NCBI GenBank assembly: GCA_963827905.1 | Contig: CAWHCB010000001.1 | Span: 52,963-116,962, forward strand | Source: Methanomassiliicoccaceae archaeon | Lineage (GTDB): Archaea > Thermoplasmatota > Thermoplasmata > Methanomassiliicoccales > UBA472 | Reading direction: 5' to 3' | DNA length: 64,000 bases | Shown here: positions 1,080 to 27,289 of the stretch, piece after piece | Position numbering within the stretch: the stretch's first letter is position 1 | Layout: every line of letters begins with the position of its first letter | The notes under the pieces: model-generated | Told to the model about the DNA's origin: nothing | Seen by the model: the letters and a program-made list of their open reading frames with translations, nothing else | The model's database searches: none | Made by a program: the position numbers and the translations under genes

Positions 1080-2410
1080 ATGGCAAAATACAAGGACAAA
1101 ATAGACTTGTACGACGACAGGGGCAAGCTCATCGATAAGGGCGTTCCTCTGGAGGCAATCAGCCCGTTGTACAACCCGGCCATTAAGCGGACCGTGTCTC
1201 TTGCCAAGAGGACCAACGCGGTCGACCTAGGAGCACTTGAGGCAGGCCTCAAGAAGGCAAAGGTCGGCGGCGGTCAGCTGAAGGGAAGAGAGATGGACCT
1301 CGCCGTTGTGGCCAACGCCGAGAAGATCGCAAAGAGAGTCAAGGAGATTCTGAAGACCACCAAGGACGACGACACCGAGGTCACTGTGATGGCCGACGGT
1401 AAGAAGATGATCGTCGTTACCCCGACCACCCGCATGGACGCTGGGGCCGAGTATACCACTGGCTTCACCGCATGCCGCCGCCGCACTTACCCAGGCCGTC
1501 CTGGACCAGTTCGACGTGAACATGTTCGAGGCAAGCATGGTCAAGGCAGCCATCTGGGGCAGGTACCCACAGACCCTTAACATGCATGGGAGCCATCGTG
1601 AAGTGCATCCTGGAGATACCGCAGTTGAACGAGGGCGCCGGTTACGCCCTAAGGAACATCATGGCCAACCACATCGTCATGTTGTCCGGCAAGAACGCCA
1701 TGAACGCCGCCGCTCTGTCCTCGATATTCGAGCAGGCCGCCGCCTTCGAGATGGGAGACGCCATCGGTCCGTTCGAGCGCCAGCAGCTGCTGGGCCTGGC
1801 CTATCAGGGCCTGAACGCGAACAACATCGTTTGCGACATAATCAAGAAGAACGGAAAGACCGGGACCGTCGGTACCGTCGTCGAGAGCATCGTCGACCGC
1901 GCCCTCGAAGACAAAGTGATCAAGAAGGGAAAGAAGTACCCGTCCGGATTCGTGGAGATGTCCACCACCGACTTCCCGTTGTGGAACGCCTACGCCGCCG
2001 CCGGTATGTTGGCCGCCATATGCGTCAACATCGGTGCTGCCCGTGCTTCCCAGGGTATCCCCTCCACCATCCTGTACTACAACGACCTGCTGGAGCACGA
2101 GACCTCCCTGCCAGGCTGTGACTACGGCCGGTGCATGGGTACGTCCGTCGGTATGTCCTTCTTCAGCCACTCCATCTATGGTGGCGGTGGCCCAGGACTG
2201 TTCCACGGAAACCACGTCGTTACCAAGCACGCCAAGGGATTCGTCATCCCGGTCATCGCCGCTGGATGCGCTCTGGATGCTGGTACCCAGTACTTCTCTC
2301 CGGAGAACACCTCGAGCCTGATGAAGGAAGTATTCGGTGACATCCCCGAGTTCAAGACCCCGATAAAGGTCGTTGGCAAGGAGGCCAAGAAGATAAAGGA
2401 TGACTTCTGA
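1080..2410 (+). CDS. mcrB: Methyl-coenzyme M reductase beta subunit; reading frame broken twice (about 1470 and about 1585)
   Basis: McrB-like sequence runs through three frames. Frame 0: [17 protein letters not shown]...EYTTGFTA. Frame 1: [36 protein letters not shown]. Frame 2: [28 protein letters not shown]...[14 protein letters not shown]...KKIKDDF. Removing one base at each junction restores one ORF of about 443 aa. Confidence 0.9.
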
Positions 2411-2418
2411 GGTGTAGA

Positions 2419-2841
2419 ATGGCGAAGAAACCCCCCCAAGAACAAGTCCCATTGCCTGAGGTCCTCATATTCCCCGCCCGATTGTTGAAGGCGGAGACCA
2501 CTGAGAAGCTGCTGAACCAGATCTACGACGACGTTCCCCATGTTCGTCACATCACGGTCAGCGGCGAATCGCTCCCCGCAACGCTCAACGCGGGTCCCGG
2601 TAAGGGCATGCCCGCGGAGCACCCAGAGAGGAGGACCATCAAGGTTAAGGGACAGGAAGTCGAGCTGAGACTGTTGGTCGGCAGAGTGTTCGTTGAGATC
2701 GATGACATCGATAACGTCGACGATGCGTTGGCGAGGATCGAGTCAATATGCAATGAGCTACTCCCCTTCGGTTTCAGCCTAGAGGTGGGGCGGTATTCGA
2801 AATTCAAGCCGACAGTCACCGATTACAAGAAATGCAGGTGA
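2419..2841 (+). CDS. mcrD: Methyl-coenzyme M reductase operon protein D
   Basis: 140-aa ORF between mcrB and mcrG with McrD-like sequence ([16 protein letters not shown]..., [22 protein letters not shown]). Confidence 0.9.
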
Positions 2842-2846
2842 ATCAC

Positions 2847-3617
2847 ATGGCATACAAGAGACAGTTCTACCCCGGAACTTCGCTACCTGCGAAGAACAGG
2901 CGCAAGTTCTACGACCCGAACTACAAGCTGGAAAAGCTCCGTGACGTCGCGATGGATGACGTCGTCCGCATCATGGGCCACAGAAAGCCCGGTGAGGACT
3001 ACAAGTCCATCCACCCGCCACTGGACGAGGGCAATGAGCCCGACTGCCCGGTAAGGCAGATGGTTGTCCCAATCGAGGGTGCCAAGAAAGGAGACAGGAT
3101 CAGGTACGTACAGTTCACTGACTCCGTCTACTGGGCCCCCGCGATCCCCTACATCCGCGCTAACATGTACATGTCGCGCATCAGGGGTATCGACACCGGT
3201 ACCTTGTCCGGCAGGCAGATCATCGAGATGAGAGAGAGGGACCTCGAAAAGGTCGCCAAGGAGTACATCGACAATGAGACCTTCGACCCGGCCAGGACCG
3301 GAATCAGGGGCGCCACCGTGCACGGGCACGCTTGCCGCCTCGACGAGAACGGCCTGATGTTCGACGCCTGGCAGAGATACAGGTGGAACGCCAAGAAGGG
3401 AGAGGTCGAGTATGTGAAGGACCAGGTCGCCATTCCCTTGGACAAGCCGATCTCCGTCGGCAAGCCAATGGACGACAAGTGGCTGAAGGCCCACACCACC
3501 ATGTTCCGCGCCGATGGCGTTGACATGAGGGATGACGCCGAGGTCATGGCCCAGAACCTGAGGATCCACAGGCTGAGGACGCTGTGCGGATACCAGTCCT
3601 TCGCCCAAAAGGAGTGA
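2847..3617 (+). CDS. mcrG: Methyl-coenzyme M reductase gamma subunit
   Basis: [12 protein letters not shown]..., [46 protein letters not shown] and [11 protein letters not shown] are classic McrG. I chose the ATG at 2847 rather than the ORF-track start at 2832. Confidence 0.95.
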
Positions 3618-3622
3618 TCAAG

Positions 3623-5290
3623 ATGGCAGGAAAAGAGAAGGACAAGCTGTTCCTCGCAGCGATGAAGAAGAAGTTCAAGGAGGCCCCTACCGAGGTCAAC
3701 ACCAACTACTACACCTTCGGTGGATGGAAGCAGTCCAAGAGGAAGCGCGAGTGGGTCGAGCAGGCCAACAAGATCGCAAAGCAGCGCGGCATCCCCATGA
3801 TGAACCAGGACATTGGTGTCCCGCTCGGACAGCGTGTGCTCATGCCCTACCAGCTGAGCCACACCGACATATATGTCGAGGCGGACGACCTCCACTTCGT
3901 CAACAACGCCGCTATGCAGCAGGCTTGGGACGACATCAGGAGGACCGTAGTCAGCGGTCTGGACACTGCCCACGCAGTCATTGAGAAGAGGCTCGGCAAG
4001 GAAGTCACGCCTGAGACCATCAACCACTATCTGGAGACCGTCAACCACGCTATGCCTGGTGGCGCCGTCGTGCAGGAGCACATGGCTGAGTGCAGCCCCG
4101 CCCTGACCGCCGACTGCTACGTCAAGGTGTTCTCCGGTGACGACGAGCTCATCGACGAGATCGACAAGCCCTACGTCATCAACATCAACAAGGAGTTCCC
4201 CGCGGACCAGGCCAAGCAGCTGAAGGAGGCCATCGGTAAGAGCCTCTGGCAGGCCATTCGCTGCCCGACCATCGTCGGACGCGTTTGCGACGGTGGTACG
4301 ATGTCCAGGTGGTCTGCGATGCAGATCTCGATGTCCTTCATCAGCAGCTACAAGTTGGCTGCCGGTGAGGCCGCCATCGCCGACTTCGCCTTCGCCGCCA
4401 AGCACGCCTCGGTGCTAGAGATGGGTACCATGATGCCCGCTCGCCGCGCCCGTGGCCCCAACGAGCCCGGTGGAATTCCATTCGGGTTCCTGGCTGACAT
4501 GGTGCAGTCCCAGCGCAAGTACCCCGACGACCCAGTCCGCGCCTCCCTTGAGACCGTGGCCTTGGGCGCCGTGATCTTCGACCAGATCTACCTCGGCAGC
4601 TACATGTCCGGCGGTGTCGGCTTCACGCAGTACGCCACTGCGGCCTACACCGACAACATCCTCGAGGACTACTGCTACTGGGCCGCTGACCTGGTGAAGA
4701 CCAAGTACGGTGGCTTCTGCAAGACCAAGCCGACCATGGAGCTCGTCGAGAAGCTGGGCACGGAGATCAACTCCTATGCCCTGGAGATGTACGAGAAGTA
4801 CCCGGCCGCGATGGAGGCCCACTTCGGTGGTTCCCAGCGTGCGACCGTGGCCGCAGCCGCCACCGGTATCGGTGTCGCCATGGCCACCGCCAACGCCAAC
4901 GCCGGTGTCAACGCCTGGTACCTTTCCATGCTGCAGCACCGTGAGCGCATGGGCCGCCTAGGCTTCTACGGCTATGACCTGCAGGACATGTGCGGAGCGT
5001 CCAACTCGCTCTCGTACAGGTCCGACGAGGGTCTGCCGCACGAGCTCCGTGGACCCAACTACCCGAACTACGCGATGAACGTGGGTCACCTATCTGGATA
5101 CGCTGGTATCGCCTGCGCCCCGCACGCCGCTCGCGGCGATGCGTTCGCATGCAACCCGCTGATCAAGGTGGCCTTCGCGGACAAGAACCTACCGTTCGAC
5201 TTCGCGAACATCACCAAGGAGTTCGGTCGTGGCGGTCTGCGCGAGTTCATGCCAGCCGGTGAGAGGACAGTTATCATCCCCGCGAAGTGA
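3623..5290 (+). CDS. mcrA: Methyl-coenzyme M reductase alpha subunit
   Basis: 555-aa intact ORF with GGAG 8 nt upstream. McrA hallmarks present: [74 protein letters not shown]. Confidence 0.97.
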
Positions 5291-5296: not shown

Positions 5297-5569
5297 ATGC
5301 AAAACGGAGAATACGCCAGATACAAGAACACCGGGACCGTCGGAAAGGTGGTCAGCTCTCATATCGAGGGCGAGGTGGAGTGGGTCGAGCTTGACAACAA
5401 GCTCGTCTACGACGCCAGCTACCTGGAGCCGGCCTCGGCGGACGAGTATCGCGTGTCCTCCGTCAAGGATCGCGTGGAAGGGCTCGACCTGGAGCAGATC
5501 GAGAAGCTCAAGGAGGAGCTCTTCAAGGCGGAGCGGCATCAATACGTCACCGGTGGCGGTGGCGGCTGA
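5297..5569 (+). CDS. Small conserved archaeal protein, last gene of the mcr transcription unit (possibly DUF2098-like; family assignment is from memory only)
   Basis: 90-aa ORF starting 7 nt after the mcrA stop. It has an N-terminal YKNTGTVGKVV...WVELDN beta-rich motif and a C-terminal TGGGGG tail, and is followed by T-runs. Confidence 0.6.
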   Translation: MQNGEYARYKNTGTVGKVVSSHIEGEVEWVELDNKLVYDASYLEPASADEYRVSSVKDRVEGLDLEQIEKLKEELFKAERHQYVTGGGGG

Positions 5570-5612: not shown

Positions 5613-5712
5613 CTGTTATTTTGCATCGACCTTCCTTATGCGATCCCGCCATCGATCGGCAGAGCATGGCTTTCGCTAGGTCGAAAATAAATGAAAAAAG
5701 ATGGCCGAACCT

Positions 5713-6306
5713 TCAGTCCGAGGCGTTGAAGCCCACCAGGATGGTGGCGTTCTGCGGGTCGTCATCGAGGCCATAGCGGTTCTTGATGATGATGTCGCCA
5801 AGAGGCGAGGGGGAGCATGACACGATCGCGTCCACACCATGGATGGCCTTCAGCTCAGGGAAGCTCACCGGGGGCATGAGGAAGAACTCCTTGTGCTTGG
5901 GTTGCCGGTCCATGAAGACGACGAAATCCTCGCAGAGCCAGAGCACATCGTCCCGTCCTTTGTACTTCTCGTGTTGGCCAGGCAGGACCTCGGTCCCTAT
6001 CACGATGCCCTCGTCGGCTATGAGCTGCACGGTCGGTTCCGGTGGTGGGCGGAACGACTTGTTCTTGAGGATGCATAGAACATACCGACGGGCCAGACAT
6101 TGCTCCAACCCCTCGTTCTTGACCTCCATCCCCATCTGGGATTTGATGTTCTTCTCCACGTTCAGGATGCCTTCCCGGGTCTCCTCGTCCAATGGGAAGA
6201 CCTGCAGTGTGCCGCGCATTCCTTCGATTATCCCTATGGCCTGATCAAGGGAGGTCATGCCCCCTAAATCCCGAGAACCGATATAATGGATTCCCTCGCT
6301 CTCCAT
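5713..6306 (-). CDS. Uncharacterised protein, paralog A (paralog B at 20469..21050)
   Basis: 197-aa ORF convergent with the mcr operon. Its C-terminal half aligns by eye with 20469..21050: DDV..L.EDF, F(L/V).PP(V/I).F, I.GV, (L/H)VGFN. I do not recognise the family. Confidence 0.7.
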   Translation of the reverse strand: MESEGIHYIGSRDLGGMTSLDQAIGIIEGMRGTLQVFPLDEETREGILNVEKNIKSQMGMEVKNEGLEQCLARRYVLCILKNKSFRPPPEPTVQLIADEGIVIGTEVLPGQHEKYKGRDDVLWLCEDFVVFMDRQPKHKEFFLMPPVSFPELKAIHGVDAIVSCSPSPLGDIIIKNRYGLDDDPQNATILVGFNASD

Positions 6307-7709: not shown

Positions 7710-8711
7710 TCAACCTTTGTCCTTCTTCCCTTTGGACGCCATCTCGTACATGGGCGCCCTGCTGATGTCGATGGCCCCGATGGCCGCCACTGGCTCCTTC
7801 TTCCTCATTATCGGCACGACCACCACGGGAAGTCCCCGGAACGGTCCGGTGGAGGCGATCCTCCGCACGATCTGGCCTTTTTTAAGGACCTCCTCCAGCA
7901 TCGGGCCGGTGTAGTTCGTGTCCACCACCTCGCCCTCCTCGCAGCGCACCCCATTGTGATTGCGGCTACGCATCGTGACCGGCGAGCGGTTCAGCAGCTC
8001 GTGGATGGCCAGGCAGAGGCACTTCAGGTCCTCCGCCTCCGTGTCCTGGGTGATCAGGGTGGTGCCTTCGGTCCAGCATCTTCTCGACGCCGTGCCCAGG
8101 GCCAAGGCGGCGGTGACCGCGCCCTTCTCCGCGGCGTCATAGCTGAACGCCGAGCCGACTATGATCACATCCCCCTCCTCGATCTTGAAAACGCTGCGCA
8201 AGGGCGCCACCTGGGACTGCTCCGGGAAGTCCTCGTCGCCGGGGAAGACCATCTTATCGTCCCTCACGATCAGGGTGGTCGCCCCGACCGCCCCCGCCCG
8301 GACCGCCTCGTCCCTCTGCTCGCAACCCATCTTCACCTTGAAGCCCATGGCCTTGATGAGCACGGCACAATTGTGCTTGCCCAGGGTAAGGTTCTGGAGA
8401 TCGACCTGGGCCACCTCTATGCCGGAGTTCTCCAGCTTGCGGCGGCCCTTGTCGGTGATGACCGTTCCCATCCTGGTGTTCTCTATGCTCCCTTCCCTGG
8501 CCATCTTCTCGAGGATGGTCCGGATGGAACCTTCCCCGATCTGCAGGGCCTCTGCCAGGGCCTTTCTGCCGATCGGCCCTTGCTTCTCGATCACCTGATA
8601 GGCCTTCCATATGTGGTACATGGAGAACTTCGGTGTGGGACCACCCGAAAAAAACGATGTGAAAGCCATTGCCATATATTGGATGGATATATAATCCAAC
8701 CATATAAACAT
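7710..8711 (-). CDS. Predicted winged-helix regulator (DUF4443-like N-terminus) with a methanogen-type DUF2111-like C-terminal domain
   Basis: The N-terminal GPIGRKALAEALQIGEGSIRTILEKMAREGSI is a wHTH signature. The C-terminal PVTMRS...YTGPMLEEV...GLPVVVVPI...AAIGAIDIS matches my memory of DUF2111. The real start may be ATG 8675 or 8621. It is divergent from atwA. Confidence 0.55.
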   Translation of the reverse strand: MFIWLDYISIQYMAMAFTSFFSGGPTPKFSMYHIWKAYQVIEKQGPIGRKALAEALQIGEGSIRTILEKMAREGSIENTRMGTVITDKGRRKLENSGIEVAQVDLQNLTLGKHNCAVLIKAMGFKVKMGCEQRDEAVRAGAVGATTLIVRDDKMVFPGDEDFPEQSQVAPLRSVFKIEEGDVIIVGSAFSYDAAEKGAVTAALALGTASRRCWTEGTTLITQDTEAEDLKCLCLAIHELLNRSPVTMRSRNHNGVRCEEGEVVDTNYTGPMLEEVLKKGQIVRRIASTGPFRGLPVVVVPIMRKKEPVAAIGAIDISRAPMYEMASKGKKDKG

Positions 8712-8804: not shown

Positions 8805-10451
8805 ATGGCCGATGAGTCAGAGTTTTTTCTCATCATAGATAATGTTTCCAAGAGCTTCAACGGCGAGGTGGTCTTGAGGGACATCACCGCCACGCTGAAA
8901 CCGGGAGAGTCTTGGGACTTATCGGCCGAAGCGGCGCTGGAAAATCCGTCCTGATCCACATCCTGCGCGGAACCCAGGAGTACAAGCCAGACAAGGGCAA
9001 GATCATCTATCGTGTCAACTATTGCGAGAAATGCAAGCGGGTGGAGATGCCCAAGAAGGGGGAGCCCTGCAAGAAGTGCGGGGGCAAGACCTCTCTACAG
9101 GAGGTCGATTTCTGGGGTTTGAACGAGAGGGACCCTTTGAGCATGGCCATGCGCGACCGCATCGCCATCATGTTGCAGCGCACCTTCGCCCTCTTCGGCG
9201 AATCGAGCGTCATCGAGAACATCTTCGAGGCCTTGGGGCCGATGAACGAGAAGCAAAGGGTGGAAAAGGCCCTGGCCTTGCTCAAGGCGGTTGGTCTGGA
9301 GCACCGCACCATGCACATCGCCCGAGACCTTTCCGGGGGCGAGAAGCAGCGTTGCGTCCTGGCCCGCCAGTTGGCCAAGGAACCCTTGATGTTCCTCGCG
9401 GACGAACCGACCGGCACACTGGACCCCAGCACCGCGGACATGGTGCATCGGGCCCTGGTGGAATCGGTGAAGAACAAGGGCATGGCCATGGTGGTCTCCT
9501 CCCACTGGCCCAAGGCCATCAACCGTCTGTCGGACAAGGCCATGTGGTTGGAGTCCGGGGAGGTGGTCAAGCTAGGGGACCCCCAGGACGTCACAAAGGA
9601 GTTCGAGGTCTGTTTCCAAAAGACCGAGGACATGATGGGCGTCGAGGTCGGGCAACCCGGTGGTCAAGGTCGACAACGCCAAGAAGTACTTCTATTCGAT
9701 CGTGCGCGGCGTGGTCAAGGCCGTGGACGATGTCACCTTCGAGGTCAAGGAAAGAGAGATATTCGGACTGGTCGGTCTCAGCGGAGCAGGAAAGACCACC
9801 GTCTCCCGCATGATCGCAGGCATCACCCCGGCCACCGGCGGTTCGGTGATGGTGCGCATCGGGGATGACTGGATCAACATGTCCGAGATGGGCGAGTTCG
9901 GCAGGGGTCGGGCCACACCCTATATCGGATTACTGCACCAGGAGTATTCGCTGTACCCGTTCAACACCGTGCTGCAGAACCTGACCATCTGCATCGGCAT
10001 GAAGCTGCCGGCAGAGCTGGCCAAGATCAAGGCCATCCAGGTCCTGGCATCGGTCGGTTTCACAACCAGGGAGATAGAGCGGATCCTTTACGCCATGCCG
10101 GACAATCTGAGCGTGGGCGAGAAGCAAAGGGTGGCCTTGGCCCGCGTGCTCATCGAGGAGCCGAGATTGGTCATATTGGACGAGCCTACCGGCACCATGG
10201 ACCCCATAACCAAGAACTCGGTCGCCAAATCGGTCCTCATCGCTAGGAAGGAGATAGGGGAGACCTTCCTGATCGTATCGCACGATATGGACTTCGTCCT
10301 GGACTGCTGCGACCGGGTGGTGATGATGAAAGGGGGGAAGATCGTCGCCATCGGCGACCCGAAGGAGATCGTCACCTCCATGACCGAGGGCGAGCTTGCC
10401 GAGTTCACATCCTGCGATCAGACGAGCGGTGACGCTGAGGTGTCTAAGTGA
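8805..10451 (+). CDS. atwA: Methyl-coenzyme M reductase system component A2 (double ABC-ATPase); frame broken near 8909 and near 9655
   Basis: [36 protein letters not shown] continues after a shift as [14 protein letters not shown] (Walker A 1), a [10 protein letters not shown]...CKKCGG zinc-ribbon insert and [13 protein letters not shown]. After a second shift it continues as [10 protein letters not shown]...[12 protein letters not shown] (Walker A 2) and [13 protein letters not shown]. The two ABC modules plus the Zn insert are the A2 architecture. Confidence 0.9.
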
Positions 10452-11053
10452 GCCCACAGAGCATCGGGCGGAAGACCCGCTTCGTCGAGTGCCGGGAGGC
10501 GAGAGGCATGGGGGTGGGAGGTTCTTTGGCACAGCGTGCCACCATTTCCGAGAGCGGGAGGCAGGTGGTGGCGGTGGCGATGGGACCAGGAAAGCGTCAC
10601 ATCACCAAGCCGGTCTGCGAGATCACCTATGAACTCAGGGAGCAGGGCATCGAGACCTCGGTCATAGTCATCAATGCCGGATCGGGGGTCCCAGCGGACG
10701 CGCCGGATGCCGTGACCAGTTCGCAATTCGGTCTGGACCAGATCGAGATCGATCGTATCCAGCAGTTCAAGGTGGCCTTGATCCACCTGGGCAATGTAAA
10801 GAACCATATCGTCTACAAGGCACGCCTCATCCTGCGCAACGTCGACATGCCCGCGGTCATCGTCTGCCAGGCCCCGGTCGATTTCGAGGATTTCGCCCGT
10901 GTCGGGGTGAAGACCCGGGTGGTCATGCCGATAAAGGAGAACATCGGCACCAAGGGCACCATCATGGAGATCATCAATGGAGTGGTCCGAGGCCAGACCA
11001 TATCCCAGGCCAAGCTGGACGAGATCGTCTCGAAGATCAAGAAATGGAGCTGA
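10448..11053 (+). CDS. mcrC: Methyl-coenzyme M reductase operon protein C
   Basis: 201-aa ORF whose GTG start overlaps the atwA stop (GTGA). [54 protein letters not shown] match McrC closely from memory. Confidence 0.9.
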
Positions 11054-11185: not shown

Positions 11186-13202
11186 ATGAAGGGTCCGGCC
11201 CTCGAGCTTCTTTATGTCGATGACGAAACGCTCCTCCTAGAGCTAATCAAGGACGTCCTGGAATCGAACGACCAGGTACATGTGGACACCTTCCCTAGCG
11301 TCAAGGAGGCGGAGCTGGCGCTGAAGAGCAATCGCTACGACGCCATAATCTCCGACTACCAGATGCCGGAGATCGATGGTATAACCTTCCTCAAACGTCT
11401 TCGCACGGCCGGCAACGACATGCCCGTTCGTGCTGTTCACCGGGCGAGGCAGGGAGGAGGTGGTCATCGAGGCCCTCAACGAAGGGGCGGATTTCTATCT
11501 CCAGAAAGGCCCGGACGTCAAGGACATGACCTTCGAGCTCATGCACAAGGTGAGGGTGGCGGTAGAGCGTAAGAGCTCGCAGCGGGTGCTCAGGGAGAGC
11601 GAGAGGACCGCCTGGACCTTGTTGAACGTGGGCGAGAGCCCAAGCCTTCTCTTCGACCGCGACGGTAGGATCATCGCCGCCAATCAGTTCATGGCCGACC
11701 TCATGAGCTGCCCCCCGGAGAAGATGGTGGGACGGAGCGCCTTGGACGTTATCTCCCCCGGTTCTCTGGAGAGGGCCTCCCATCTGGTGGAACGGGTGGC
11801 CAGGACCAGGAAGGCCATCACCTTCGTGGGCGAGAGCTACCTGAAACATTTCGAATTCACCCTCTATCCTGTCATCGAAGCGGAGGACGAGGTAAAGCGA
11901 CTGGCATTGGTGTCCTATGACACCTCGACCCACATGCGTACCGAGACTGAGCTAAGAAAGAGATTGGCCATGGAGGAACTGGTCTCCGAGGTGACCTCAT
12001 CCCTGCTCCTCGCATCCACCGCTGAACTGGGCGATCGGATCGTGGACACATTGGTATCCGTGGGCCATGCGATGGAATTGGACGCACTGACAATATTCAA
12101 TTTCGACGGCGAGGCCCTGGTGCACCGTTACGGCGTGTCGATGCTGGAAGGAAAGGACCCTCGCACCGACGAGATAAGGGAGTGGCAATGGCCCTGGTCC
12201 TTTGCGAGAATGCGCTCCGGCAACATGATCGGTATCGATGATGTGCAGGACCTTCCCAATGAGGCCTGGAGCGACCAGGAGCATTATCAGAGCTCCCATT
12301 ATAGCGCCCTGTTGTTGGTACCGATGTCCGTCGGAGGGGCGTTCACCGGATGCCTCATGCTCGGCATGGTCCGGGGGACGAGACGTTGGTCCGATGAGGA
12401 CCAAAGATTGGCAAGGGTGCTGGGGAACATCTATGCGAGCACGCTCTCGCGGCGCCGGGCGGAGGAAGAGCTATCCGAGACGAGCAGGCGCCTGTTGGAG
12501 GCGCAAGGTGGCCCGGTCGAGACTGGGACGACTGAGAATCTGGTTGAGGCGGCATTGCGCACCGCCAACCGAAAGCTCACCCTGCTCAGCAGCATCACCA
12601 GGCATGACATCCTCAATCAGGTCAGCGTCCTAGCCGGATACTTGGAATTGACGCGAATGGCCAACCGAAACCCAGACCTCGGGCAGAACCTGGACCGGAT
12701 GGAGATCGCGATAAAGAGGGTCCAGGAGAGCATATCGTTCACCAAGGAATATGAGCAGCTTGGGGCACTGGGGCCTAGCTGGCAATCGTTGGAAAAGGTG
12801 GTAAGGGACTCCAGTGTCGGATTGGAGCTGAAAGGGATCGAGCTCGTCAGCGATGTGAAAGGTTTCGAGGTTTTCGCAGATAAAATGCTCGATCGGGTCT
12901 TCATGAACCTCATCGACAACAGCATGAGGCACGGGGAAGGGGTCAAGCACATCAAGGTCTGTGGCGAAGAGAAGGGAGATGAGCTCAGCATCATCTACGA
13001 GGACGATGGTGCTGGGATTTCTCAGGACATGAGGGGGAAGTTGTTCCGGCGGGGCGCCGGCAGGAACACAGGCTTCGGGCTCTTCCTGTGCAAGGAGATA
13101 CTAGACCTGACCCGGATCACGATAACCGAGATAGGTGAGCCAGGTGAGGGGGCCAAGTTCCTCATGAAGGTACCTAAGGGCATTTATCGTTACACGAAAT
13201 AA
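11186..13202 (+). CDS. Hybrid response regulator - PAS - GAF - histidine kinase; one frame break near 11425
   Basis: REC domain (LLYVDDE..., AIISDYQMPEIDG, then after the shift VLFTGRGREEVVIEALNEGADFYLQK). Then a PAS segment, a GAF-like segment, an H-box (ITRHDILNQV) and HATPase_c (NLIDNSMRHGEG, DDGAGIS, GFGLFLCKEI). Confidence 0.8.
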
Positions 13203-13618
13203 TAATTGGTATCACTGGCCAATTCTTATTTTCATTTTTGATAATTAGATAAAAGGAGGTTTTATAAAGAGGTAAACGGTTATTAACTCGTCTCCGGGCG
13301 AGTGAAAGGACGTTCAAGGTGTTTGGCAGCTTTCTTGAATAGTCTTCTCCTCCCCCCAATTTTTTTCCGAAGGTTCGTAATTGTTATTATTATCAATAAA
13401 TAAAATAGCTGGGTTATATTTTGTGTAAATAATAAAACTAGGGCCCAGACGTTTATAAAACGATACTGGCCTCTGTTTTTTATCTTGTTAAATAATATCT
13501 AAATGGAGATTATTATATATCGAGAGCATGATTCACTTCTCGAGCAGGTCGTCTGGCATGGCTTTTTAATGGTTGTAAAAAGTGAGCCTAGTCACCACGA
13601 CCTCGGGGAGGAAAGGAA

Positions 13619-16600
13619 ATGGACAAGAAAGCTGCCATCAAAGCATATGCTATCGTAGCGATATTGTTGGTCAGCGTTTCTGGAGTCGCATTGGCCCCCT
13701 TCTTGGCGTCTGCTGTCTACAGCAACCCGAGCGGGGACAATAATTCCGTAACGACAGAATGCTTCGATCGCCAGGGCACATCACTATCTGCCTGCAAGGA
13801 CCGCCACTGGCTATTATGAGCAAAACGTCAGTTACAACTGGGGCATCGAAAAGTCGGTGATCCAGGACAAGGCCGAGATCGACGAAGGAAAAACTGCAAT
13901 CATTCCAATATACGCTTACGATCACTCGCGATGAATCGAACGAAAAGAAGTACGGTGTGCGCGGATACATCTGGGTTAAGAACATCGGAGAGCACGACAC
14001 CGTTAAGCTGAAGATCGTTGACTGGGTGCAGACCAAGAAGGCAGGTGAATGGAGCCTACAAGAACTATGTAATGGTCGATGTCGACACCAGCGCCAAGCC
14101 GGTCCTCCAGCCCGGTGAGGAGTACAAGTACTACTATGATATCCAATTCACCCCAGTGCAGGGCGCATTATACCGTAACTCTGCATTGGTAACGATCGAA
14201 AACCATGGGAACAACATGGGTTGCCCGACCGGCCCGAACCCGAAGGCCGACTTCCAGCTGCCCGCGTCCCCAAGCACCACCTATTGGGACGAGACCGCCA
14301 CCATAGTTGACGACCTCGTCGTTCCAGCCCATTACAAGCTGGTATCCAATGACGCCCCGGCGAAGTGGAACATGAACGGACCTGGTGTGTTGAAGTTCAA
14401 CGTCACCATCCAGAACTTCGACGCCACCCCTGGTGACGTCGCTTACATGGACAACGTGGCCAAGCTGACCGAGGGTGATTCCAAGGTCTGCCGCGAGGAC
14501 AACGCCCGCGTCACCCTCACCGGTGGCGACGAGTACATCCCACCTGTCCCCAAGATATCCGTTGACAAGGAGAGCGATGGATGCGTCATGCCCGGTGAGG
14601 TCATCACCTGGACGATTACCATCAAGAACACTGGCAATGTCGATTTGGACACGGTCTATGTGGAAGACTACTTGATCGATTTCAAGGACACGATAAGTCT
14701 ACCCGTTGGAGGACAGATGGTTTACACCAAGACATACCAGGTGCCCCTGTCCTACACTGGTAAGTACGTCGTGAACGTTGTGAATGTTACCGCTGAGCTG
14801 GAGGAAGATGACCTGTTCGTTCAGGACTCCGACAGCGTGCCGGTATGCTACCCACGCCTCACCGTTGAGAAGGTGGCGATGATGGACATGACCGCTCCAG
14901 GGCACTATGCCAACTGGACAATCTATGTGAACAACACCGGCGATGTCGACATGAAGAATGTCGCCGTGTATGATAGTATGTTCGCTCAAAGCCCGATGTA
15001 CGTCGATGTGATGGCGGGCCAGAGCGTCATGATCCACGTCAGCACCACCATTCCAGCGGACAGCAAGCTGAACGAGATCTGCAACACCGTCGAAGTCAAG
15101 TGGTCCTATTCGATCCCTGACGGGGACGGAAAGAAAGACATAGTGTTGGACGACAAAGCCTCCAGCTGCATACCAGTCATTCGCCCCTCGATCGAGATTA
15201 CCAAAGTGGCGAACATGACCTGGGCCTGTGTTGGTGACGAAATCGGATACACGATTGTTGTAACGAACACCGGTAACTATGATCTCAAGGGCATCGTTTT
15301 GTCTGACGAGATGCTACACATCTATGAGACCTTCGGGTTGAGCCCTGGAATGTCAAAGACATTCACTGACTCCTACATAGTGGAGCAGGGCGACAAGAAG
15401 ATCGAGAACAACGCCAGTGTCTTCGTCGATGTGTTCAATGACAAGCACTGCGTACTAGAGGACTATGCCATTGCATGCGTGAACGTTGGGTACCCCGCCG
15501 TTGACGTCTACAAGGTCGGTCCGTCCCAAGCCCTATACCCTGGTGACAAGTTCACCTACACCATCTACGTCAAGAACATCGGCAACGTGCCTCTGGAGGA
15601 CGTGAAGGTGGTCGACAGCCTTATCGGTCTGGACATCCAGGTCGACCTGGCCGTCGGTGAGAACAAGTCCATCAGTGTGCCCTGGGAGATCCCAGCCAAT
15701 TTCATGGGTGACAAATACTGCAACAAGGTATTCGTCGAGGGCTCCTGGTGCCATTGCGCCGTGAAGGACACCTCTGAGTGGTGCATCGATGTGCTGCACA
15801 TGCCGGGCCAACCCTGCATCAGCATAGAGAAGCACGGACCATGCCGCGCCATGGCCGGTGAGACCGTACCATACTTCATCGTCGTCAAGAACACCGGTGG
15901 TGTCCCTCTGAACAACGTGAATGTCAGCGATGACATCGGTGCCGACGGCATCGATGTGAAGTGGTTCTACTACGATGGCATCTTGATGCCTGGCGCATAT
16001 TGGAACATCACCACATCCGCCACCATCCCGATGGACTTCAAGGGACCATACTTCGTGAACGTGGTCGAGGTAAACGGCCAATATGATGGAAAGAACGTCT
16101 GGTGCATCGACTCCCATGCGATCGATATCATCCACCCGTCCTTCACCATCGTGAAGTCCGCCCCGAAGCTATCCGCTCTGGGCCATGACATAACCTACAC
16201 CCTCTGGGTCAACAACACCGGTGATGTGGACCTGATCAACATCGTCATCACCGATGAGAAGGCCCCTATGGGTCAGTTCAAAATCGATTACTTGGCCATG
16301 GGCGCTTCCGCCGAACTGACATACATGTGGAACGTGCCGATGAACTATCAGCCTGATGAGGTCTGCAACGACGCTTGCGGCTCCGCGTTCCCTGGCCCGT
16401 CCGCCTACTGGTGCGGATGCGGTGAGAGCTGCCCCTGGTTCGAAAAGACGAACTTCGGGCGCGAGGTGAAGGCCGAGTCAAACAAGGTTTGCACCTTCAT
16501 CGTGAAGCCTGGCATCGATGTGGAGAAGACCGGACCTGAGATGGCCAAGATCGGAGAGACCATCCAGTACAACATAACCGTGAAGAACACGGGTAACTAC

Positions 16601-18505: not shown

Positions 18506-18526
18506 AGGGACTAAACACTAACAAAC

Positions 18527-20468: not shown

Positions 20469-21050
20469 TCAGTCCTCGCCCTCGATGTTGAACCCTACCA
20501 GGTGCGTCCAATGCTTGGTCTTGGAATATCCAAGCCGTTCCCTGACCATATCGTCCGCCAGGGTGGAGATGGAACCAGAGGTCACTTCCTTGACACCCGG
20601 GATGTCATCGAGGAATTGGAATGGGATGGGAGGGAGCACGAAGTATGGCTCCCCTTTCGGGACCACGTTCAGGTAGAAGATGAAGTCCTCGCTCAGGAAA
20701 CATACATCGTCCCGGTCCTGCATCTCCCCACGGCGCGACGGGGTTAGGTACTCACCGACTATCTGCCCCTCCTGGTCCGCGATGTAGACCACATCCCTGG
20801 TCGGCGATAGGATCATCATCGATGAGTCGACCACCAGCACGAAACCGTGCCTCCGGTCCAATGCCTTCCAGACTCCCGTGTTGACGAAAGGCATGAGCCC
20901 TCCGCAGGCACCGTTGTCCTCGGCCGATCGCTCCAGGGCGATGAGGTCGTCCTTGAACCCCTTATCAAGGTAACGGAAATCGATCACGCCTGGAAGCTCC
21001 CGAGACCTTTGTTCCACTGCCCTGAGCACCTTGTCACGGTCCAAGGTCAT
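20469..21050 (-). CDS. Uncharacterised protein, paralog B (paralog A at 5713..6306)
   Basis: 193-aa ORF. Its C-terminal half (DDVCFLSEDFIFYLN...YFVLPPIPFQFLDDIPGV...HLVGFNIEGED) aligns with paralog A. Confidence 0.7.
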   Translation of the reverse strand: MTLDRDKVLRAVEQRSRELPGVIDFRYLDKGFKDDLIALERSAEDNGACGGLMPFVNTGVWKALDRRHGFVLVVDSSMMILSPTRDVVYIADQEGQIVGEYLTPSRRGEMQDRDDVCFLSEDFIFYLNVVPKGEPYFVLPPIPFQFLDDIPGVKEVTSGSISTLADDMVRERLGYSKTKHWTHLVGFNIEGED

Positions 21051-21877: not shown

Positions 21878-22053
21878 AGAAATGTCACCAGACGAACCTG
21901 ATATGGAAACGGCCTTTTATTAATGGTTTGCCAGCCACTCATATCTTTTTTAAGGTGGAGGTCAACCAAAAACCGTGGCCATGATACAAGAATTCGCCCT
22001 TCCAGATGATGCAAAACCTTTTTTATCACCCCCTGCCATCCCACCCCGACCAG

Positions 22054-24120
22054 ATGAGGATCAACGTAAATGGCAAACCCATCGAGGTGGGGGACGGGGC
22101 CAAGCTGGCCGATGTCTTAGAAGGACAACCTTATGTTCCTGGCACCTATTTGGCGATCATCCGTTCCCTGGAACAGGTGGTGAAGGAGACCAGCGAGTTC
22201 GAGGTCGTCACCGAGAAGGGTTCCTTCATAGTTCAAGTGCAAGAGGGGGCTTGGAAGCAGATATGGCTCGACCTCTACAAAGGATTGGAGGGGCGCAGTG
22301 TGCGCTGGCGCACCAGCAAGATCGATGCCATCGGTTCGTTCCCTTCATCCATACCTTCCTCAAGGGACCCTGCCAAGCTCGTTCGCTACGATTGCTTCTT
22401 CGCCTTGGGCGGTTATGATAGCCAGACCACATACATCATGATCGCCCGCCAGGACCATGAGGCCGCGTACGGTGTGGCCGCCCCGGTCTTCGGAAGGGTG
22501 ACGAGCGGCAGGCATGTGGTAGATGCCCTTGACGAGGCGGACAAGGTCCTGGAAGTGAGACCGGTCATCATCGAGCTGCGGTCCAAGGATGCATTGGCCA
22601 CCAACGATCTGGAGACCAGATTGGAACCGGGCATGTCGGTGGAGACCTTCGTGCAGGTCGACCTCGACCCCCGTTCTCCCGTGTCGGTGGAGCATTTCCT
22701 GGTGGCCGTCGATGGAGGGACCATCAAGGTCACCGAGAAGACCGAGTCGTTCACTGCCAACTCCTCCAGGATGGATGTCAATCTGATCGAGGAGTCCCAC
22801 TCCATCCGCGAGCCGGACCTGGTAACGGTCCGACACCAAGGGGACGGCATGGGTCGGATATACTTCTACAAGACCAGGAGACAGGTCTCCAACAGCCACA
22901 ACATCGTCGGCAAGGTGTCGATCGGCCACCAATTGATACATCTAGTTCCGGAGGGAGGGGCCGTGACCATCGTCCCCAAACCGGGGAGGGTCATGGTCAT
23001 TGGCATGACCCAGGCCGAAGGGCAGAGATTCCTGGAATCACATGGACTGAAGCAGGTGCGGACCGGGATCACCGACGATTCTGCCATCATCGTAGAGCAG
23101 GAACCGGAGCTCACCATGCATGTCATGGAGGAGGGTTCGGTCGACACCTTCGGCACGACCTCCGATCGGATCCATGATTGGTACCTGTTCCGGTCCGAGG
23201 CACCAACCTCGGTCCGCTACATCGAGAAGCTCACCGGTCTGGACCACAAGCCCATTGGCACGGTCAAGGTGCACTTCACCTTCGAGGGCATGTCCATGGT
23301 CACCTTCGATGGGGACGACCAATTGGGTGCGAGCCTCTATCCTGAGCCGTCCTGGAAGGACATGAGCCGTCGCGGTGACATCGGTGTCACCAACATGTCC
23401 CGGCCGAATCGGGGACTGATCGGCATCAGGCTGCAGGAGAGCCCCGAGTTCGGTCCCACCGGGGAGGAACAGCACGGAACCAACCTCATCGGTCGCTTCG
23501 CAGGCGACCTGGCGAGCATGATGGTCGGCCTGAAGGACGGGGACATCGTGTACCTTCGCGAGACGGATGTCAGCCCTGACAAGGTTTCCAAACCCCGGCG
23601 CAAACCAGCAAGCGATGATGCTGAGGTCCAAGCCCAAGAAGGCGGCGGCGAAGAAGAAGACCTCGTCGTCCAAGCCCAAGAAGGCGGTAAAGAAATGACG
23701 CTCGACCATGAGACAAGATACATTGTTCTGGCCCCGGACTGCACCATGACACCGGACCAGCTAGTGCGCACCATACACACCATCGATGCTGACGTCATCG
23801 TCAAGGAGACATGTTTCGGGGCGGTCATCTCCGGCAAGACCGAGGCGGTGAGGAAGGTCCTCACCGAGGTGCGGAAGATGGACCCCACCCGTGTCTATTC
23901 CAAGGTGCGGGGCTTCCCCGTGGGCGACCAGAGGAGGTGCCGGGCCCATCATGGCTCGAGACCTGGGTTCGCCCAGCTGGAGAAGGAATGGAAGGACCTG
24001 ACCATGGTGGAGAAGGGCCTGCAATGCCTGGAGCGAGGGGAGAAGGTCCCTCCCATCAAGAAGAAGGGCAAGATGCCCGTCAAGGATCTGAAGACCGTAT
24101 GCGAGGAGGCCTGTCCATGA
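22054..24120 (+). CDS. mmp3: Methanogenesis marker protein 3 (22054 to about 23620) read through in frame into methanogenesis marker protein 6 (23695-24120)
   Basis: MRINVNGKPIEVGDGAKLADVL... and about 520 aa are Mmp3-like. After an E/Q/G linker, MTLDHETRYIVLAPDCTMTPDQL...RCRAHHGSRPGFAQLE is Mmp6-like. See the finding on a hidden alternative-frame stop at 23696-23698. Confidence 0.85.
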   Translation: MRINVNGKPIEVGDGAKLADVLEGQPYVPGTYLAIIRSLEQVVKETSEFEVVTEKGSFIVQVQEGAWKQIWLDLYKGLEGRSVRWRTSKIDAIGSFPSSIPSSRDPAKLVRYDCFFALGGYDSQTTYIMIARQDHEAAYGVAAPVFGRVTSGRHVVDALDEADKVLEVRPVIIELRSKDALATNDLETRLEPGMSVETFVQVDLDPRSPVSVEHFLVAVDGGTIKVTEKTESFTANSSRMDVNLIEESHSIREPDLVTVRHQGDGMGRIYFYKTRRQVSNSHNIVGKVSIGHQLIHLVPEGGAVTIVPKPGRVMVIGMTQAEGQRFLESHGLKQVRTGITDDSAIIVEQEPELTMHVMEEGSVDTFGTTSDRIHDWYLFRSEAPTSVRYIEKLTGLDHKPIGTVKVHFTFEGMSMVTFDGDDQLGASLYPEPSWKDMSRRGDIGVTNMSRPNRGLIGIRLQESPEFGPTGEEQHGTNLIGRFAGDLASMMVGLKDGDIVYLRETDVSPDKVSKPRRKPASDDAEVQAQEGGGEEEDLVVQAQEGGKEMTLDHETRYIVLAPDCTMTPDQLVRTIHTIDADVIVKETCFGAVISGKTEAVRKVLTEVRKMDPTRVYSKVRGFPVGDQRRCRAHHGSRPGFAQLEKEWKDLTMVEKGLQCLERGEKVPPIKKKGKMPVKDLKTVCEEACP
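23626..23687 (+). repeat. 20-bp direct repeat GTCCAAGCCCAAGAAGGCGG x2 (period 42 bp) in the Mmp3/Mmp6 junction
   Basis: Identical copies at 23626-23645 and 23668-23687. Confidence 0.9.
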
Positions 24121-24554
24121 AGGTGCTCATCGTCCCGCCCAACAGCCTGATACTTTTCGACCTGGTAGAGCGATTCGGCCATGAGCCATTGAGCGTCATG
24201 GCCGTGCTCCAGGAGAAGATCGAGTCCAAGGAGATCGAGTCGCCGCCCATCAACGTCACGGTGGACGATGTGAAGAAGGGCCTGAAGTACGCGGCCATCG
24301 AGGTGCCCTCGGGAATAAGGGGCCGTCTGGCCATATACGGACCCTTGGTCGACATAGCCGAGGCGGCGATCATCATGGAGGACGCCCCGTTCATGTTCGG
24401 TTGCGTGGGCTGCGCCCGGACCAACGAGATGATGAAGCTCCTCATCCGCAAGCGGAAGATACCCTTGCTGGAACTGGACTACCCGGCGAACGAGGACGAG
24501 GCCAAGGCCATGGTGGCCCAGATAAAGACCTTCCTGGAGGGATTGGTAAGATGA
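24117..24554 (+). CDS. mmp5: Methanogenesis marker protein 5
   Basis: 145-aa ORF ([24 protein letters not shown]...[13 protein letters not shown]...LELDYP). ATGA overlaps at both ends. Confidence 0.85.
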
Positions 24555-25780
24555 TCAAGATCGCACAGTTGTCCTGCGGCACCGAGTACTCTGCCGTGCA
24601 ATCGGAGATCGAGGCCGCCGCCACCGCAGTCGGCGCGAAGATGGTGTACCCGGACGTGGACATGGAGAAGATCAATTCGGCCGTGGACCGGTTCGGCTTC
24701 AACCCGGTGAGCCCGCAACTGAAGCTCATGATCGCCCGCGCCATGTCCCTGGCCGACAAGAGCTATGAGGCCGACGCCGTGTTCATCTCCTCTTGCTTCC
24801 GTTGCGCCGAGGCGGCGCTGGTGCGCACCGAGCTGAGGAAGTTCATCCAGAACAACACCCGCATGCCAGTGGTCACATATTCCTTCACGGAGAGGACCAA
24901 GTCCGGACAGCTTCTGACCAGGATGGAGGCATTGGTCACCATCGTGGAGAGGAAGGAGCTGCTCGCCCGGGAGAGGCAGGTCGGGCTGACCGCAGGCCTG
25001 GACTCCGGTTCCAGCACGACGAAGGCGGTCATCATGCGGGACAATGTGATCATCGGCAAGAGCTGGACCCCCACCGCGGACATATTCTCGTCGGCGGAGA
25101 CGGCCCTCCAGGAGGCCCTGGCCCAGGCCGGAGTCACCATCGGCCAACTGGAGGCCATCGGCACCACTGGCTACGGACGTTTCACCTTGGGCAAGAAGTT
25201 CAAGGCCAAGCTGGTCCAGGAGGAGCTCACCACCAATTCCAAGGGGGCGGTATGGCTGGCCGACCGGCAGAAGGGGGAGGCCACCATCATCGACATCGGG
25301 GGCATGGACAACAAGGCCATCACCGTTCGCGACGGCATCCCGGACAACTTCACCATGGGCGGCATATGCGCTGGCGCCTCCGGACGTTTCCTGGAGCTGA
25401 CGGCAAAGAGGCTCAGGGTGGAGATAACCGACCTGGGGGCGATGGCGGACCGGGGCGACCACACCAAGGTGCCCATGAACTCCTATTGCTCCATATTCGG
25501 CATCCAGGACCTGGTCACATCGCTGGCCGCAGGCCACACCGTCGAGGACGTGGCCGCCGCCGCCTGCCATTCCGTGGCCGAACAGATCTACGAACAGCAG
25601 CTCCAGGAGATCGAGGTCAGAAAACCCATCATCCAGGTGGGCGGGACCTCATTGATATCTGGCCTGGTCACGGCCATGGAGCACACCCTGGGCGAGAGGC
25701 CGATAGTGCCTCCCCACTCCCAATACATCGGGGCGGTGGGCGGGGCATTGCTCTCCTCGGGATTCCTTGAGGGGCATTGA
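24551..25780 (+). CDS. mmp15: Methanogenesis marker protein 15 (BadF/BcrA/HgdC-type ATPase fold)
   Basis: 409 aa. The N-terminal [14 protein letters not shown] segment is followed by an acetate/sugar-kinase-like ATPase ([42 protein letters not shown]). Confidence 0.85.
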
Positions 25781-25781
25781 G

Positions 25782-26339
25782 ATGGAGATCGAGGTGCAGG
25801 GCACGGACCAGAAGGGCGCGGAGGACTATGCCCTGCTGTTCGAGCACATCCTGCTGGAGATGGGCCTGACCAACGTGCTTGACAAGGTCCTGCTCCTGGT
25901 CCAGCCTGCCGACCCGTTGTTCGTGGTCTCGGTGCGCATGCGGCCCACCGCCGGTGCCCGTCCCATCTACGACGTGGTGCAGCTCGATGATAAGGAGGGC
26001 GGGGTGATGCTCTCCATAACCGACGAGACGTTCGCCCCCCGCGTGCTCGCCCTGCTCTGGAAGACCTTCGGCCGGGACCGGGTGGAGCAGCTGACCCGTT
26101 ATGAGATCTTCGTGGCGGGTAAGAACCGTTCCGACCTATGGGACCTGAAGATAGACCCGGAGGAGGAGCTGCGGGCCCAAGTGCTTGACGCCATCTGGAA
26201 GCTCGTCCCCGAGGGTCTGAAGATCCGCCATTCCTTCAATTCCGAAAACGTTATGACCATAGCCAACACCGAGCACGGATTCCAGCCGGACTGGTTGGAT
26301 GCGGCGGAGAAAGTGCATCATTCCATGGAGGCGTCCTGA
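25782..26339 (+). CDS. mmp17: Methanogenesis marker protein 17
   Basis: 185-aa ORF immediately after mmp15. Its length and position in the mmp operon fit Mmp17. The family call is from memory of operon order and size. Confidence 0.75.
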   Translation: MEIEVQGTDQKGAEDYALLFEHILLEMGLTNVLDKVLLLVQPADPLFVVSVRMRPTAGARPIYDVVQLDDKEGGVMLSITDETFAPRVLALLWKTFGRDRVEQLTRYEIFVAGKNRSDLWDLKIDPEEELRAQVLDAIWKLVPEGLKIRHSFNSENVMTIANTEHGFQPDWLDAAEKVHHSMEAS

Positions 26340-27289
26340 TGTACCAGGTGCTGATGTACGACGGAGGGGTGTACCGGGTCAAGGAGCTTTACGAGCTCAT
26401 CGAGGACATCGGGGGCTTCGTGATCCAGAAGACCCAGATCCAGGTCCAGATAATCATCACCTTTGCCATCCCGGAGGAGGACCGGCCCATCATCGAACGC
26501 AAGACCCGGGAGCTGGGCGGCAAGTTGTCCGAGGTCCCCTTGGCCGGCACGGAGATAGTGGTGGTCGGACCCACCCTGGGCAGGCACCACATGCCCCACC
26601 CCATCTGCGACATCGCGGAGAACCTGCGTCGTTACGGCGCCATCACCGTGGTCATGGGCTTGGCGAGGGGAAGGGGCAAGCATACCGCGCAGATCAGCGC
26701 CGATGAGAAGGCCATCATCGAGGAGTATGACGCGGCGGTCTTCGTGGTCGGCAACTTCCGGGAGTGCGTGGAGAAGCACAAATTCAAGCTCTGGCAGGAC
26801 ATCCAGATACCGGTGGTCGCCACCTGTGGACCGGAGTTCGACTCGCTGCCCGCCTGCGACGCGCTGGTGTGCGGCATCGGGCGAAAGGTGGAGCGCATGC
26901 GCCGGGCCGAGGAGATCCAGAAGCTGGACGAGGTGGCGGAAAAGGTGCAAGGCCTCATCGAGCTGAAGCGCAAGGACACGGACGACGACCCGCTCTTCGT
27001 GCACCCGGCCGAGATCAAGGACCGCCTGGATTCGATGCAGGCCATCCAGGACAACCTGCGCCCGGCGCCTGTGGTCCTGCACGTCAACGGTGTGAGGGCC
27101 AAGCTGCCATTCGAGCAATATGCCGCTGCCATCGCCGACCTTGAGGTCTACGGACGAAAGTTGGGCGAGGTGACGACGATATCGCCGAGCCGCATGCCAG
27201 GCAGCATCCTCATCCGCATCAAGACCCGCAGCCAGGTGGAATCAGAGGACCGGACCAGGCAATCACAGTCCGCTACCGCCAAGACCTGA
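26339..27289 (+). CDS. mmp7: Methanogenesis marker protein 7
   Basis: 316 aa, with a TGATG stop/start overlap with mmp17. MYQVLMYDGGVYRVKEL..., VVVGPTLGRHHMPHPICDI, VVATCGP resemble Mmp7. Confidence 0.8.
   Translation: MYQVLMYDGGVYRVKELYELIEDIGGFVIQKTQIQVQIIITFAIPEEDRPIIERKTRELGGKLSEVPLAGTEIVVVGPTLGRHHMPHPICDIAENLRRYGAITVVMGLARGRGKHTAQISADEKAIIEEYDAAVFVVGNFRECVEKHKFKLWQDIQIPVVATCGPEFDSLPACDALVCGIGRKVERMRRAEEIQKLDEVAEKVQGLIELKRKDTDDDPLFVHPAEIKDRLDSMQAIQDNLRPAPVVLHVNGVRAKLPFEQYAAAIADLEVYGRKLGEVTTISPSRMPGSILIRIKTRSQVESEDRTRQSQSATAKT

Follow-up and report, generated by a model that had tools for sequence, protein, structure and literature searches.

Two paralogous members of the uncharacterised family arCOG04964 in the methyl-coenzyme M reductase and activation gene cluster of Methanomassiliicoccales

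Methyl-coenzyme M reductase (MCR) makes nearly all biological methane, and its assembly and activation have been structurally tractable only since 2025, in one model organism. In animal guts, the main methyl-reducing methanogens are the Methanomassiliicoccales; this order, which is also common in wetlands, has a distinct lineage of MCR. Two small genes from this order, here called copy A and copy B, are the subject of this analysis; they lie in a stretch of 64,000 nucleotides (the window) of contig CAWHCB010000001.1 from a Methanomassiliicoccaceae archaeon (assembly GCA_963827905.1, positions 52,963 to 116,962 of the forward strand), and window coordinates are counted from its first letter. 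Among the closest described systems is the complex that activates MCR in Methanococcus maripaludis, in which McrC, Mmp7, Mmp17, Mmp3, A2 and DUF2098 co-purify with MCR and activation is driven by ATP; the paper describing it expects further Mmp interactors and draws a parallel to the ATP-driven activation of corrinoid proteins (PMC12176620). In the window, copy A is convergent with the mcr operon, 143 nt from its last gene (DUF2098), and the start of copy B lies 956 bp from the mmp3 ORF (open reading frame), on the opposite strand.

A reading of the DNA without database searches (the sequence-only reading) had described these genes as a diverged paralog pair of no assignable family, with a common C-terminal domain and one copy beside each of two MCR-related loci. 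Both ORFs were present on the minus strand, at 5713..6306 (197 aa) for copy A and 20469..21050 (193 aa) for copy B, and the peptides that it quoted were found in their translations; the positions that it gave relative to the mcr operon and, at about 1 kb, to the Mmp operon also held. By BLASTP, the two proteins are 29% identical over 169 residues, with 51% positives (E 6e-23), and the alignment spans residues 32-194 of copy A and 21-188 of copy B. A 69-sequence alignment of the A and B subfamilies matched from end to end, and the AlphaFold models of both copies have the same order of helices and strands. Because the alignment spans nearly all of both proteins and the order of secondary structure is the same, the homology is full-length; the two are indeed paralogs, and the restriction of their similarity to the C-terminus had to be dropped. 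Both are acidic (pI about 4.8), of 20-22 kDa and without a hydrophobic segment, and are small soluble alpha/beta proteins.

As a pair, copies A and B are exactly the two family members found in the window by hidden Markov model (HMM) scan, scoring 301.8 bits (copy A) and 315.2 bits (copy B) against the HMMs of their own clades and 236.9 and 199.7 bits, respectively, against the whole-family HMM. The family itself is far larger than a pair: an exhaustive family HMM search of 1.84 billion representatives returned 412 clusters at 50% identity (E up to 1e-3), 286 of them at E up to 1e-10, and in a neighbour-joining tree A and B are two of at least eight deep clades. Homologue searches returned 108 A-type and 161 B-type proteins, all labelled hypothetical, the named ones being from Methanomassiliicoccales; for copy B, full-length homologues reached 92% identity. 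A profile built from A and B recovered the Methanonatronarchaeum protein P0339, and orthologues from this genus matched the family profile with E values of about 1e-42 to 1e-46. Another of these, P0389 (AMET1_1006 of Methanonatronarchaeum thermophilum), matched the family profile at E 9.1e-42 and is listed as arCOG04964, "Uncharacterized protein" (PMC5852551, supplementary file 4). Judged by these profile matches, copies A and B belong to arCOG04964. This arCOG is a catalogue entry without a function, and no mention of it was found in the literature searched.

No search placed the proteins in a known family. Pfam returned no match to either copy at E up to 1 and no meaningful match to 122 diverse family members. 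In the NCBIfam scan, the sole match at E of 1 or below was NapG for copy B, which is negligible (E 0.016, 14 bits against a cutoff of 269); neither copy matched a methan_mark_N model at E up to 1, and their neighbours matched models 3, 5, 6, 7, 15 and 17. Sequence searches of the PDB with single sequences and with the family profile found nothing. The AlphaFold models are very confident, with a mean predicted local distance difference test score (pLDDT) of 95.0 for copy A and 94.2 for copy B and a predicted template modelling score (pTM) of 0.88 for each, and Foldseek found no PDB match to either at E <= 0.001 in a library that runs to April 2026 and so postdates the 2025 activation-complex structures. 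A reading of A and B as diverged forms of McrC, McrD or Mmp proteins was rejected, as true McrC and McrD genes are present and hhalign gave probabilities below 1% for each neighbouring family (McrD, McrC, Mmp3/5/7/15/17, DUF2098 and AtwA). For the McrC/Mmp7 families (PF04609, TIGR03264, TIGR03274) there was no match, with hhalign at 0.2% for McrC and 0.5% for Mmp7, and arCOG04964 has no family-wide cysteine to set beside the Cys/His ligands of Fe-S clusters in the activation complex; for McrD (PF02505) there was neither a Pfam match nor a significant PDB fold, with hhalign at 0.6%. The earlier inability to assign the proteins is thus borne out by profile searches and structure prediction, and nothing in these searches points to a widespread housekeeping family without linkage to mcr. 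There is no Pfam or NCBIfam model and no solved relative of arCOG04964, and it may be a new fold.

To establish how far the gene positions are conserved, one genome per GTDB species was scanned, which gave 208 A-type relatives; the best 80 loci, all with Methanomassiliicoccales-type labels, were analysed by ORF calling, clade HMMs for family members and tblastn for MCR-related genes. Of the species-level loci, 63 extend for 2.5 kb or more downstream; in 58 of these the DUF2098-mcrA genes lie convergent just downstream of the A-type gene, with a median gap of 381 bp (range from about 0 to 8.7 kb), and one of the five exceptions is still within an atwA-mcrC-mmp cluster. Both mcrC and mmp3 were found in 44 loci. 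A B-type gene is present in 29 of these and in every case (29/29) lies exactly between mmp3, from which it is divergent, and mcrC, with which it is convergent. The other 15, mostly with Methanomethylophilaceae-type labels, have no B-type gene, and in 14 of them mcrC abuts mmp3. In loci of this kind (L039, L055, L061, L068, L076, L077 and L080-L087, mostly Methanomethylophilaceae), atwA-mcrC-mmp3-6-5-15-17-7 runs uninterrupted and co-directional; some Methanomethylophilaceae-type genomes have a very divergent extra family member elsewhere (e.g. P0350 in L004). The arrangement is therefore kept across dozens of Methanomassiliicoccales species, and its recurrence bears out the earlier view that chance is unlikely: the arrangement is not due to chance.

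In two complete 2.5-Mb genomes, the genes follow the compact order mmp7-17-15-5-6-3, B, mcrC-atwA, DUF4443/2111, A, DUF2098-mcrAGDB-tfuA-ycaO. In light of this order, each copy does adjoin MCR-related genes as had been stated, and what had been taken for two separate MCR loci in the window is one ancestral supercluster that has been split by insertions. The linkage was seen in two lineages, the second being the Methanonatronarchaeia, and these and the Methanomassiliicoccales carry related, probably laterally acquired MCR (PMC9635834). In Methanonatronarchaeum, a single family member heads the mmp3-mmp6-mmp5-mmp15 operon, 16 bp upstream of mmp3. This operon continues with a TYW1-like radical S-adenosylmethionine gene and a 181-aa ORF (L003, 14331-15853); the latter is not a family member and has no Pfam match. 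The AMET1_1006 protein was detected by mass spectrometry in all six growth conditions at nemPAI values of 0.28-0.92, similar to the abundance of its operon neighbour Mmp3 (0.38-0.87) (PMC5852551).

That the family has a conserved place in this supercluster seems not to have been reported previously. A marker cluster of roughly 16 kb was listed for these organisms by Borrel et al. 2014, whose Methanomassiliicoccus luminyensis accessions skip the slot between McrC and Mmp3 in which B-type genes lie, and the family is missing from the universal methanogen marker list of that work. A later marker survey took Pfam DUFs as its starting point, so that a family without a Pfam entry was out of its reach.

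Outside the A and B clades, family members were found in three Methanonatronarchaeum species, as extra copies in Methanomethylophilaceae and Ca. Methanogranum, on a contig of 37% guanine-cytosine (GC) content with an MtaB that shares 90% identity or more with its Methanobacterium congolense counterpart, on another of 26% GC that bears mtd and on contigs with Wood-Ljungdahl and methylamine methyltransferase genes. A further search, the third for homologues, used a profile built from divergent members and gave only 13 proteins. Named members come only from Methanomassiliicoccales and Methanonatronarchaeum, and the others are on contigs with methanogen hallmark genes. Unannotated neighbours of 181-195 aa at other loci were considered as further paralogs and rejected, as no family HMM matched them.

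The genomic contexts of clades other than A were sampled through 12 single loci. Family members were found beside MtmB, RACo and MtrH; beside MtaA, DUF2284, MtbB, corrinoid proteins, RamA and MtmB; beside RACo, MtaC, MtaB and MtaA; and beside PylC and PylD. Two further loci are syntenic, with NikR or DUF2284, an Asn-synthase-like gene, a CfbE-type Mur ligase, HypA and HypD, and in one of them (L094) a nitrogenase-like gene and cobW lie within 8 kb as well. What these contexts have in common is methyl-coenzyme M metabolism, in the form of Ni/Co tetrapyrrole enzymes together with their ATP-dependent reductive activation or their biosynthesis, and the family extends to other methanogen lineages and to other contexts related to methyl-coenzyme M. 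As a separate observation, DUF2284, a "predicted metal-binding protein", adjoins a family member in both L090 (9386-9982) and L094 (8536-9081), one of these being a cluster for methylamine methyltransferases and the other a CfbE/HypA cluster; the recurrence in unrelated contexts hints at a functional pairing.

Residue conservation was counted over 158 non-redundant family representatives. Nearly invariant positions are G16, E35, N48, G50, R57, G88, F112, F126, F133, G141, S149, S151, D155 and G176-F177, with E35 kept in 155 sequences, N48 in 152, R57 in 137, G88 in 156 and D155 in 145, whatever the genomic context. S147 is conserved in clades A and B and less so elsewhere, and no cysteine is conserved across the 158. 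The Ser-rich motif S-x-S-x-S...D falls at a strand-to-helix junction of the AlphaFold model (residues 143-161). Clade A and most other clades have FRxPPxPT, E90, PPxxFPE and SxSPS; clade B has lost all four and gained NGACGG and KHWTH. As the lost motifs are common to A and most clades, B is the derived paralog.

Taken together, a real functional link of the family to MCR and methyl-coenzyme M metabolism is likely. We propose that copies A and B are accessory factors for the Ni/Co-tetrapyrrole enzymes of this metabolism, more precisely soluble helpers that bind a ligand and take part in maturing these enzymes or in activating them reductively with ATP, and give this reading a probability of roughly 40%. 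Because the polar site is invariant whatever the genomic context, we infer one common ligand or chemistry: E35, N48, R57, D155 and the Ser-x-Ser loop would bind a small anionic ligand or cofactor, for which a tetrapyrrole or a flavin/deazaflavin are the likeliest candidates. The remaining surface would then fit each paralog to a different partner. Copy A, which keeps the ancestral motifs, may work with MCR and DUF2098, and copy B with the McrC-A2-Mmp3 activation module. A bolder form of this proposal is doubtful, namely that arCOG04964 is an unrecognised fold that acts as a dedicated cofactor- or electron-delivery partner of ATP-dependent reductive activation machines for tetrapyrrole enzymes. 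The machines served would be A2/McrC/Mmp for the Ni-F430 of MCR, RACo/RamA for Co-corrinoid proteins and, where F430 is synthesised, the Cfb enzymes; in methyl-reducing methanogens, MCR activation would then have the A and B paralogs as its missing, lineage-specific parts.

Several observations weigh against the helper proposal. The activation complex of M. maripaludis works without an arCOG04964-type protein (PMC12176620), and the Methanomethylophilaceae, with no B-type gene at the mcrC-mmp3 junction, can dispense with B. Some members have uninformative neighbours (L004/L005 and L092/L093), and the taxonomy is established for few of the clades other than A and B. The evidence that bears on membership in the activation complex consists of genomic linkage and proteome co-expression. 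The only Foldseek lead to recur with both models, and the one with the highest template modelling scores, the nitroreductase-like C-terminal domain of FbiB, which binds flavin mononucleotide (FMN) and F420 (PDB 4xoq, 4xom, 4xoo), is not significant (template modelling score 0.35-0.43 against a threshold of 0.5, probability <= 0.41, E >= 0.16, root-mean-square deviation about 10 Å). A role as an Fe-S protein or Fe-S electron carrier was rejected on the grounds that no cysteine is conserved family-wide.

In a rival reading the proteins bind no small molecule, and A and B would have a purely structural part in MCR and its activation complex, as extra subunits or assembly adaptors of these lineages, with A docking to MCR/DUF2098 and B to McrC/Mmp3 and with contacts replaced or added that are specific to the MCR type of Methanomassiliicoccales and Methanonatronarchaeia. 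Their conserved positions beside genes for complex subunits, an abundance in the proteome similar to that of Mmp3, the lack of a recognisable cofactor-binding motif or fold match and the further interactors anticipated by the activation-complex paper (PMC12176620) are all in keeping with such adaptors. An interface fitted to different partners is not expected to be invariant, however, and the same polar residues are invariant in members beside methyltransferase/RACo or F430-synthesis genes instead of MCR; the M. maripaludis complex, moreover, needs no such subunit (PMC12176620). We therefore regard purely structural subunits as unlikely. The conserved Arg and the Ser-rich loop at a helix N-terminus could alternatively hold a sulfonate or phosphate, in keeping with a binder or shuttle of coenzyme M, methyl-coenzyme M or coenzyme B that links the MtaA/MtbA methyltransferases to MCR in methyl-reducing methanogens, and members do occur beside MtaA-type URO-D genes, methyltransferase systems and mcr. 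Such a shuttle seems decidedly unlikely: it leaves both the CfbE, NikR and HypA/HypD contexts and the operon with mmp3-6-5-15 unexplained, and in the biochemistry of MCR these coenzymes, which are freely soluble, are not known to need a carrier.

The presence of several paralogs per genome in different pathway contexts, the conserved ligand-type site and a conserved gene for a helix-turn-helix (HTH)-DUF4443-DUF2111 protein nearby could also be reconciled with regulators or sensors, e.g. a metabolite-binding domain that tunes MCR activation or methyltransferase activity post-translationally. These are, however, single compact domains with no DNA-binding or signalling domain, and expression is constitutive, at the Mmp level, with "no change" across conditions (PMC5852551), which makes a regulatory role very unlikely. 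Finally, most of the synteny comes from one order, the Methanomassiliicoccales, and the contexts of some members are uninformative, as would be seen if hypothetical genes with no functional link were kept near mcr by genomic inertia. Against this, the linkage survives rearrangements and insertions across families of Methanomassiliicoccales, and members of other clades repeatedly adjoin functionally related genes. Hitch-hiking is further argued against by the mmp3 operon that is independently present in the distant class Methanonatronarchaeia, and inertia is an extremely improbable explanation.

The window itself can be read in the light of the compact order. On the plus strand, tfuA is followed by mcrB, mcrD, mcrG and mcrA (1080..5290; Pfam MCR_beta_N, MCR_beta, MCR_D, MCR_gamma and MCR_alpha), with mcrD at 2419-2841 (Pfam MCR_D), and then by DUF2098 as the last gene of the mcr operon (5297..5569; Pfam DUF2098, E 4.5e-14), which faces copy A across the gap given above. 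Beyond copy A, itself on the minus strand, come a PRC-barrel protein, the HTH-DUF4443-DUF2111 protein, atwA for component A2 (8912..10451, plus strand, in two frames; TIGR03269, E 3.7e-100, and ABC_tran) and mcrC (10448-11053, plus strand; MCR_C, 31.4 bits against a cutoff of 25). Next come genes for a PAS/GAF histidine kinase and for surface proteins of very large size (DUF11/DUF7507), then copy B and a 258-aa ORF, both on the minus strand, the latter of which lies between copy B and mmp3. Divergent from copy B, the plus-strand genes mmp3(+mmp6), mmp5, mmp15, mmp17 and mmp7 (22006..27289, with mmp3 from 22006; NCBIfam methan_mark_3, _6, _5, _15, _17 and _7) are followed by one for an FMN-reductase-like protein. 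The interval from mcrC to mmp3 (11430-20080 and 21101-21877) contains the histidine kinase, three large DUF11/DUF7507/CARDB surface ORFs, several unannotated ORFs and the 258-aa ORF; as relatives have only the B-type gene there, these look like lineage-specific insertions.

The window DNA is about 94% identical to two Methanomassiliicoccaceae metagenome-assembled genomes (MAGs), in which the copy A protein is 98-99% identical. In the window, a 1-nt insertion around 1526, relative to these MAGs (L008 and L009), breaks mcrB into two ORFs whose frames differ (1080-1580 and 1586-2410). A 16-kb alignment with L008/L009 has 84-127 gap openings, and the split was rejected as a sign of a pseudogene cluster, since with about 100 indels in the alignment an assembly error is more likely. 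The two overlapping frames of atwA (8912-9868 and 9660-10451) are probably another indel artefact. Mmp3 (model residues 19-519) and Mmp6 (573-701), encoded by separate overlapping genes elsewhere, form one 704-aa ORF (22006-24120), either a real fusion or an indel artefact, whose end is overlapped by the mmp5 ORF (from 23811). Directly after mmp7, the FMN-reductase/flavodoxin-like protein (27293-28447; Pfam FMN_red, E 6.5e-35), which is also found in a complete related genome (L002, 3931-4497), is a candidate physiological electron donor to the MCR activation complex. The HTH (PH0730-like/CggR_N)-DUF4443-DUF2111 protein (7710-8711, minus strand), which lies between atwA and copy A and was matched by tblastn in 62 of the 80 loci, is a candidate for regulating transcription of the MCR supercluster.

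The start of copy A is most likely at Met17, the second Met of its frame, because A-type homologues are of about 181 aa and begin there; the gene would then cover 5713..6258 (181 aa, minus strand), within an open frame that reaches 6306. Reading of the bases upstream on the minus strand suggests a putative promoter of its own, the TATA-like ATTATAT at 6281..6287, about 26 nt upstream of the Met17 ATG, and a putative ribosome-binding site, GGGGG at 6260-6264, just before this ATG. A T-rich stretch on the minus strand (T6, then TTTATTTT; 5684..5699), 14-29 nt past the stop of copy A, is a terminator candidate of the archaeal type. Copy B has GGAGG directly 5' of its ATG and starts 50 nt past the stop of the 258-aa ORF (21101-21877), which has a weak DUF498 match; as both are on the same strand at this spacing, they are probably co-transcribed.

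The MCR and activation cluster of the Methanomassiliicoccales thus encodes one or two proteins that are conserved and expressed and have no description in any database, and the known accessory cluster gains additional, lineage-specific and uncharacterised components with a putative function. Copies A and B are good candidates for missing MCR helper proteins. If they do act in MCR maturation or activation, they would explain differences between lineages in MCR activation, could aid heterologous expression of Methanomassiliicoccales MCRs and would offer lineage-specific targets for methane mitigation. The members found beside corrinoid-activation and F430-synthesis genes lead to a testable idea, that ATP-driven reductive activation systems may share one helper family.

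Compared with the described accessory proteins, arCOG04964 resembles Mmp3/5/6/7/15/17, DUF2098, McrC and McrD in being small and in having its genes inside or beside the mcr and atwA-mcrC-mmp clusters; like the Mmp proteins, it is recognised by phyletic pattern and gene position rather than by chemistry, and it is expressed together with them. It differs from the Mmp proteins, DUF2098, McrC and McrD in having no sequence or profile similarity to any of them and no match to a PDB fold, and from the Mmp markers in its absence from published marker lists, in apparently not being universal in methanogens and in having two or more paralogs per genome. The FbiB C-terminal domain, which has no sequence similarity to A or B, serves as a lead only; a role in delivering electrons would be in keeping with a ligand of the flavin or deazaflavin kind. 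Unlike RACo and RamA, the family has no RACo, ferredoxin or ATPase domain, so that it could be at most a partner and not the activase. The parallel to these systems is one of position: several members outside the A and B clades lie one to four genes away from those for RACo/RamA and corrinoid methyltransferases, just as copies A and B lie beside the ATP-dependent machinery for MCR activation.

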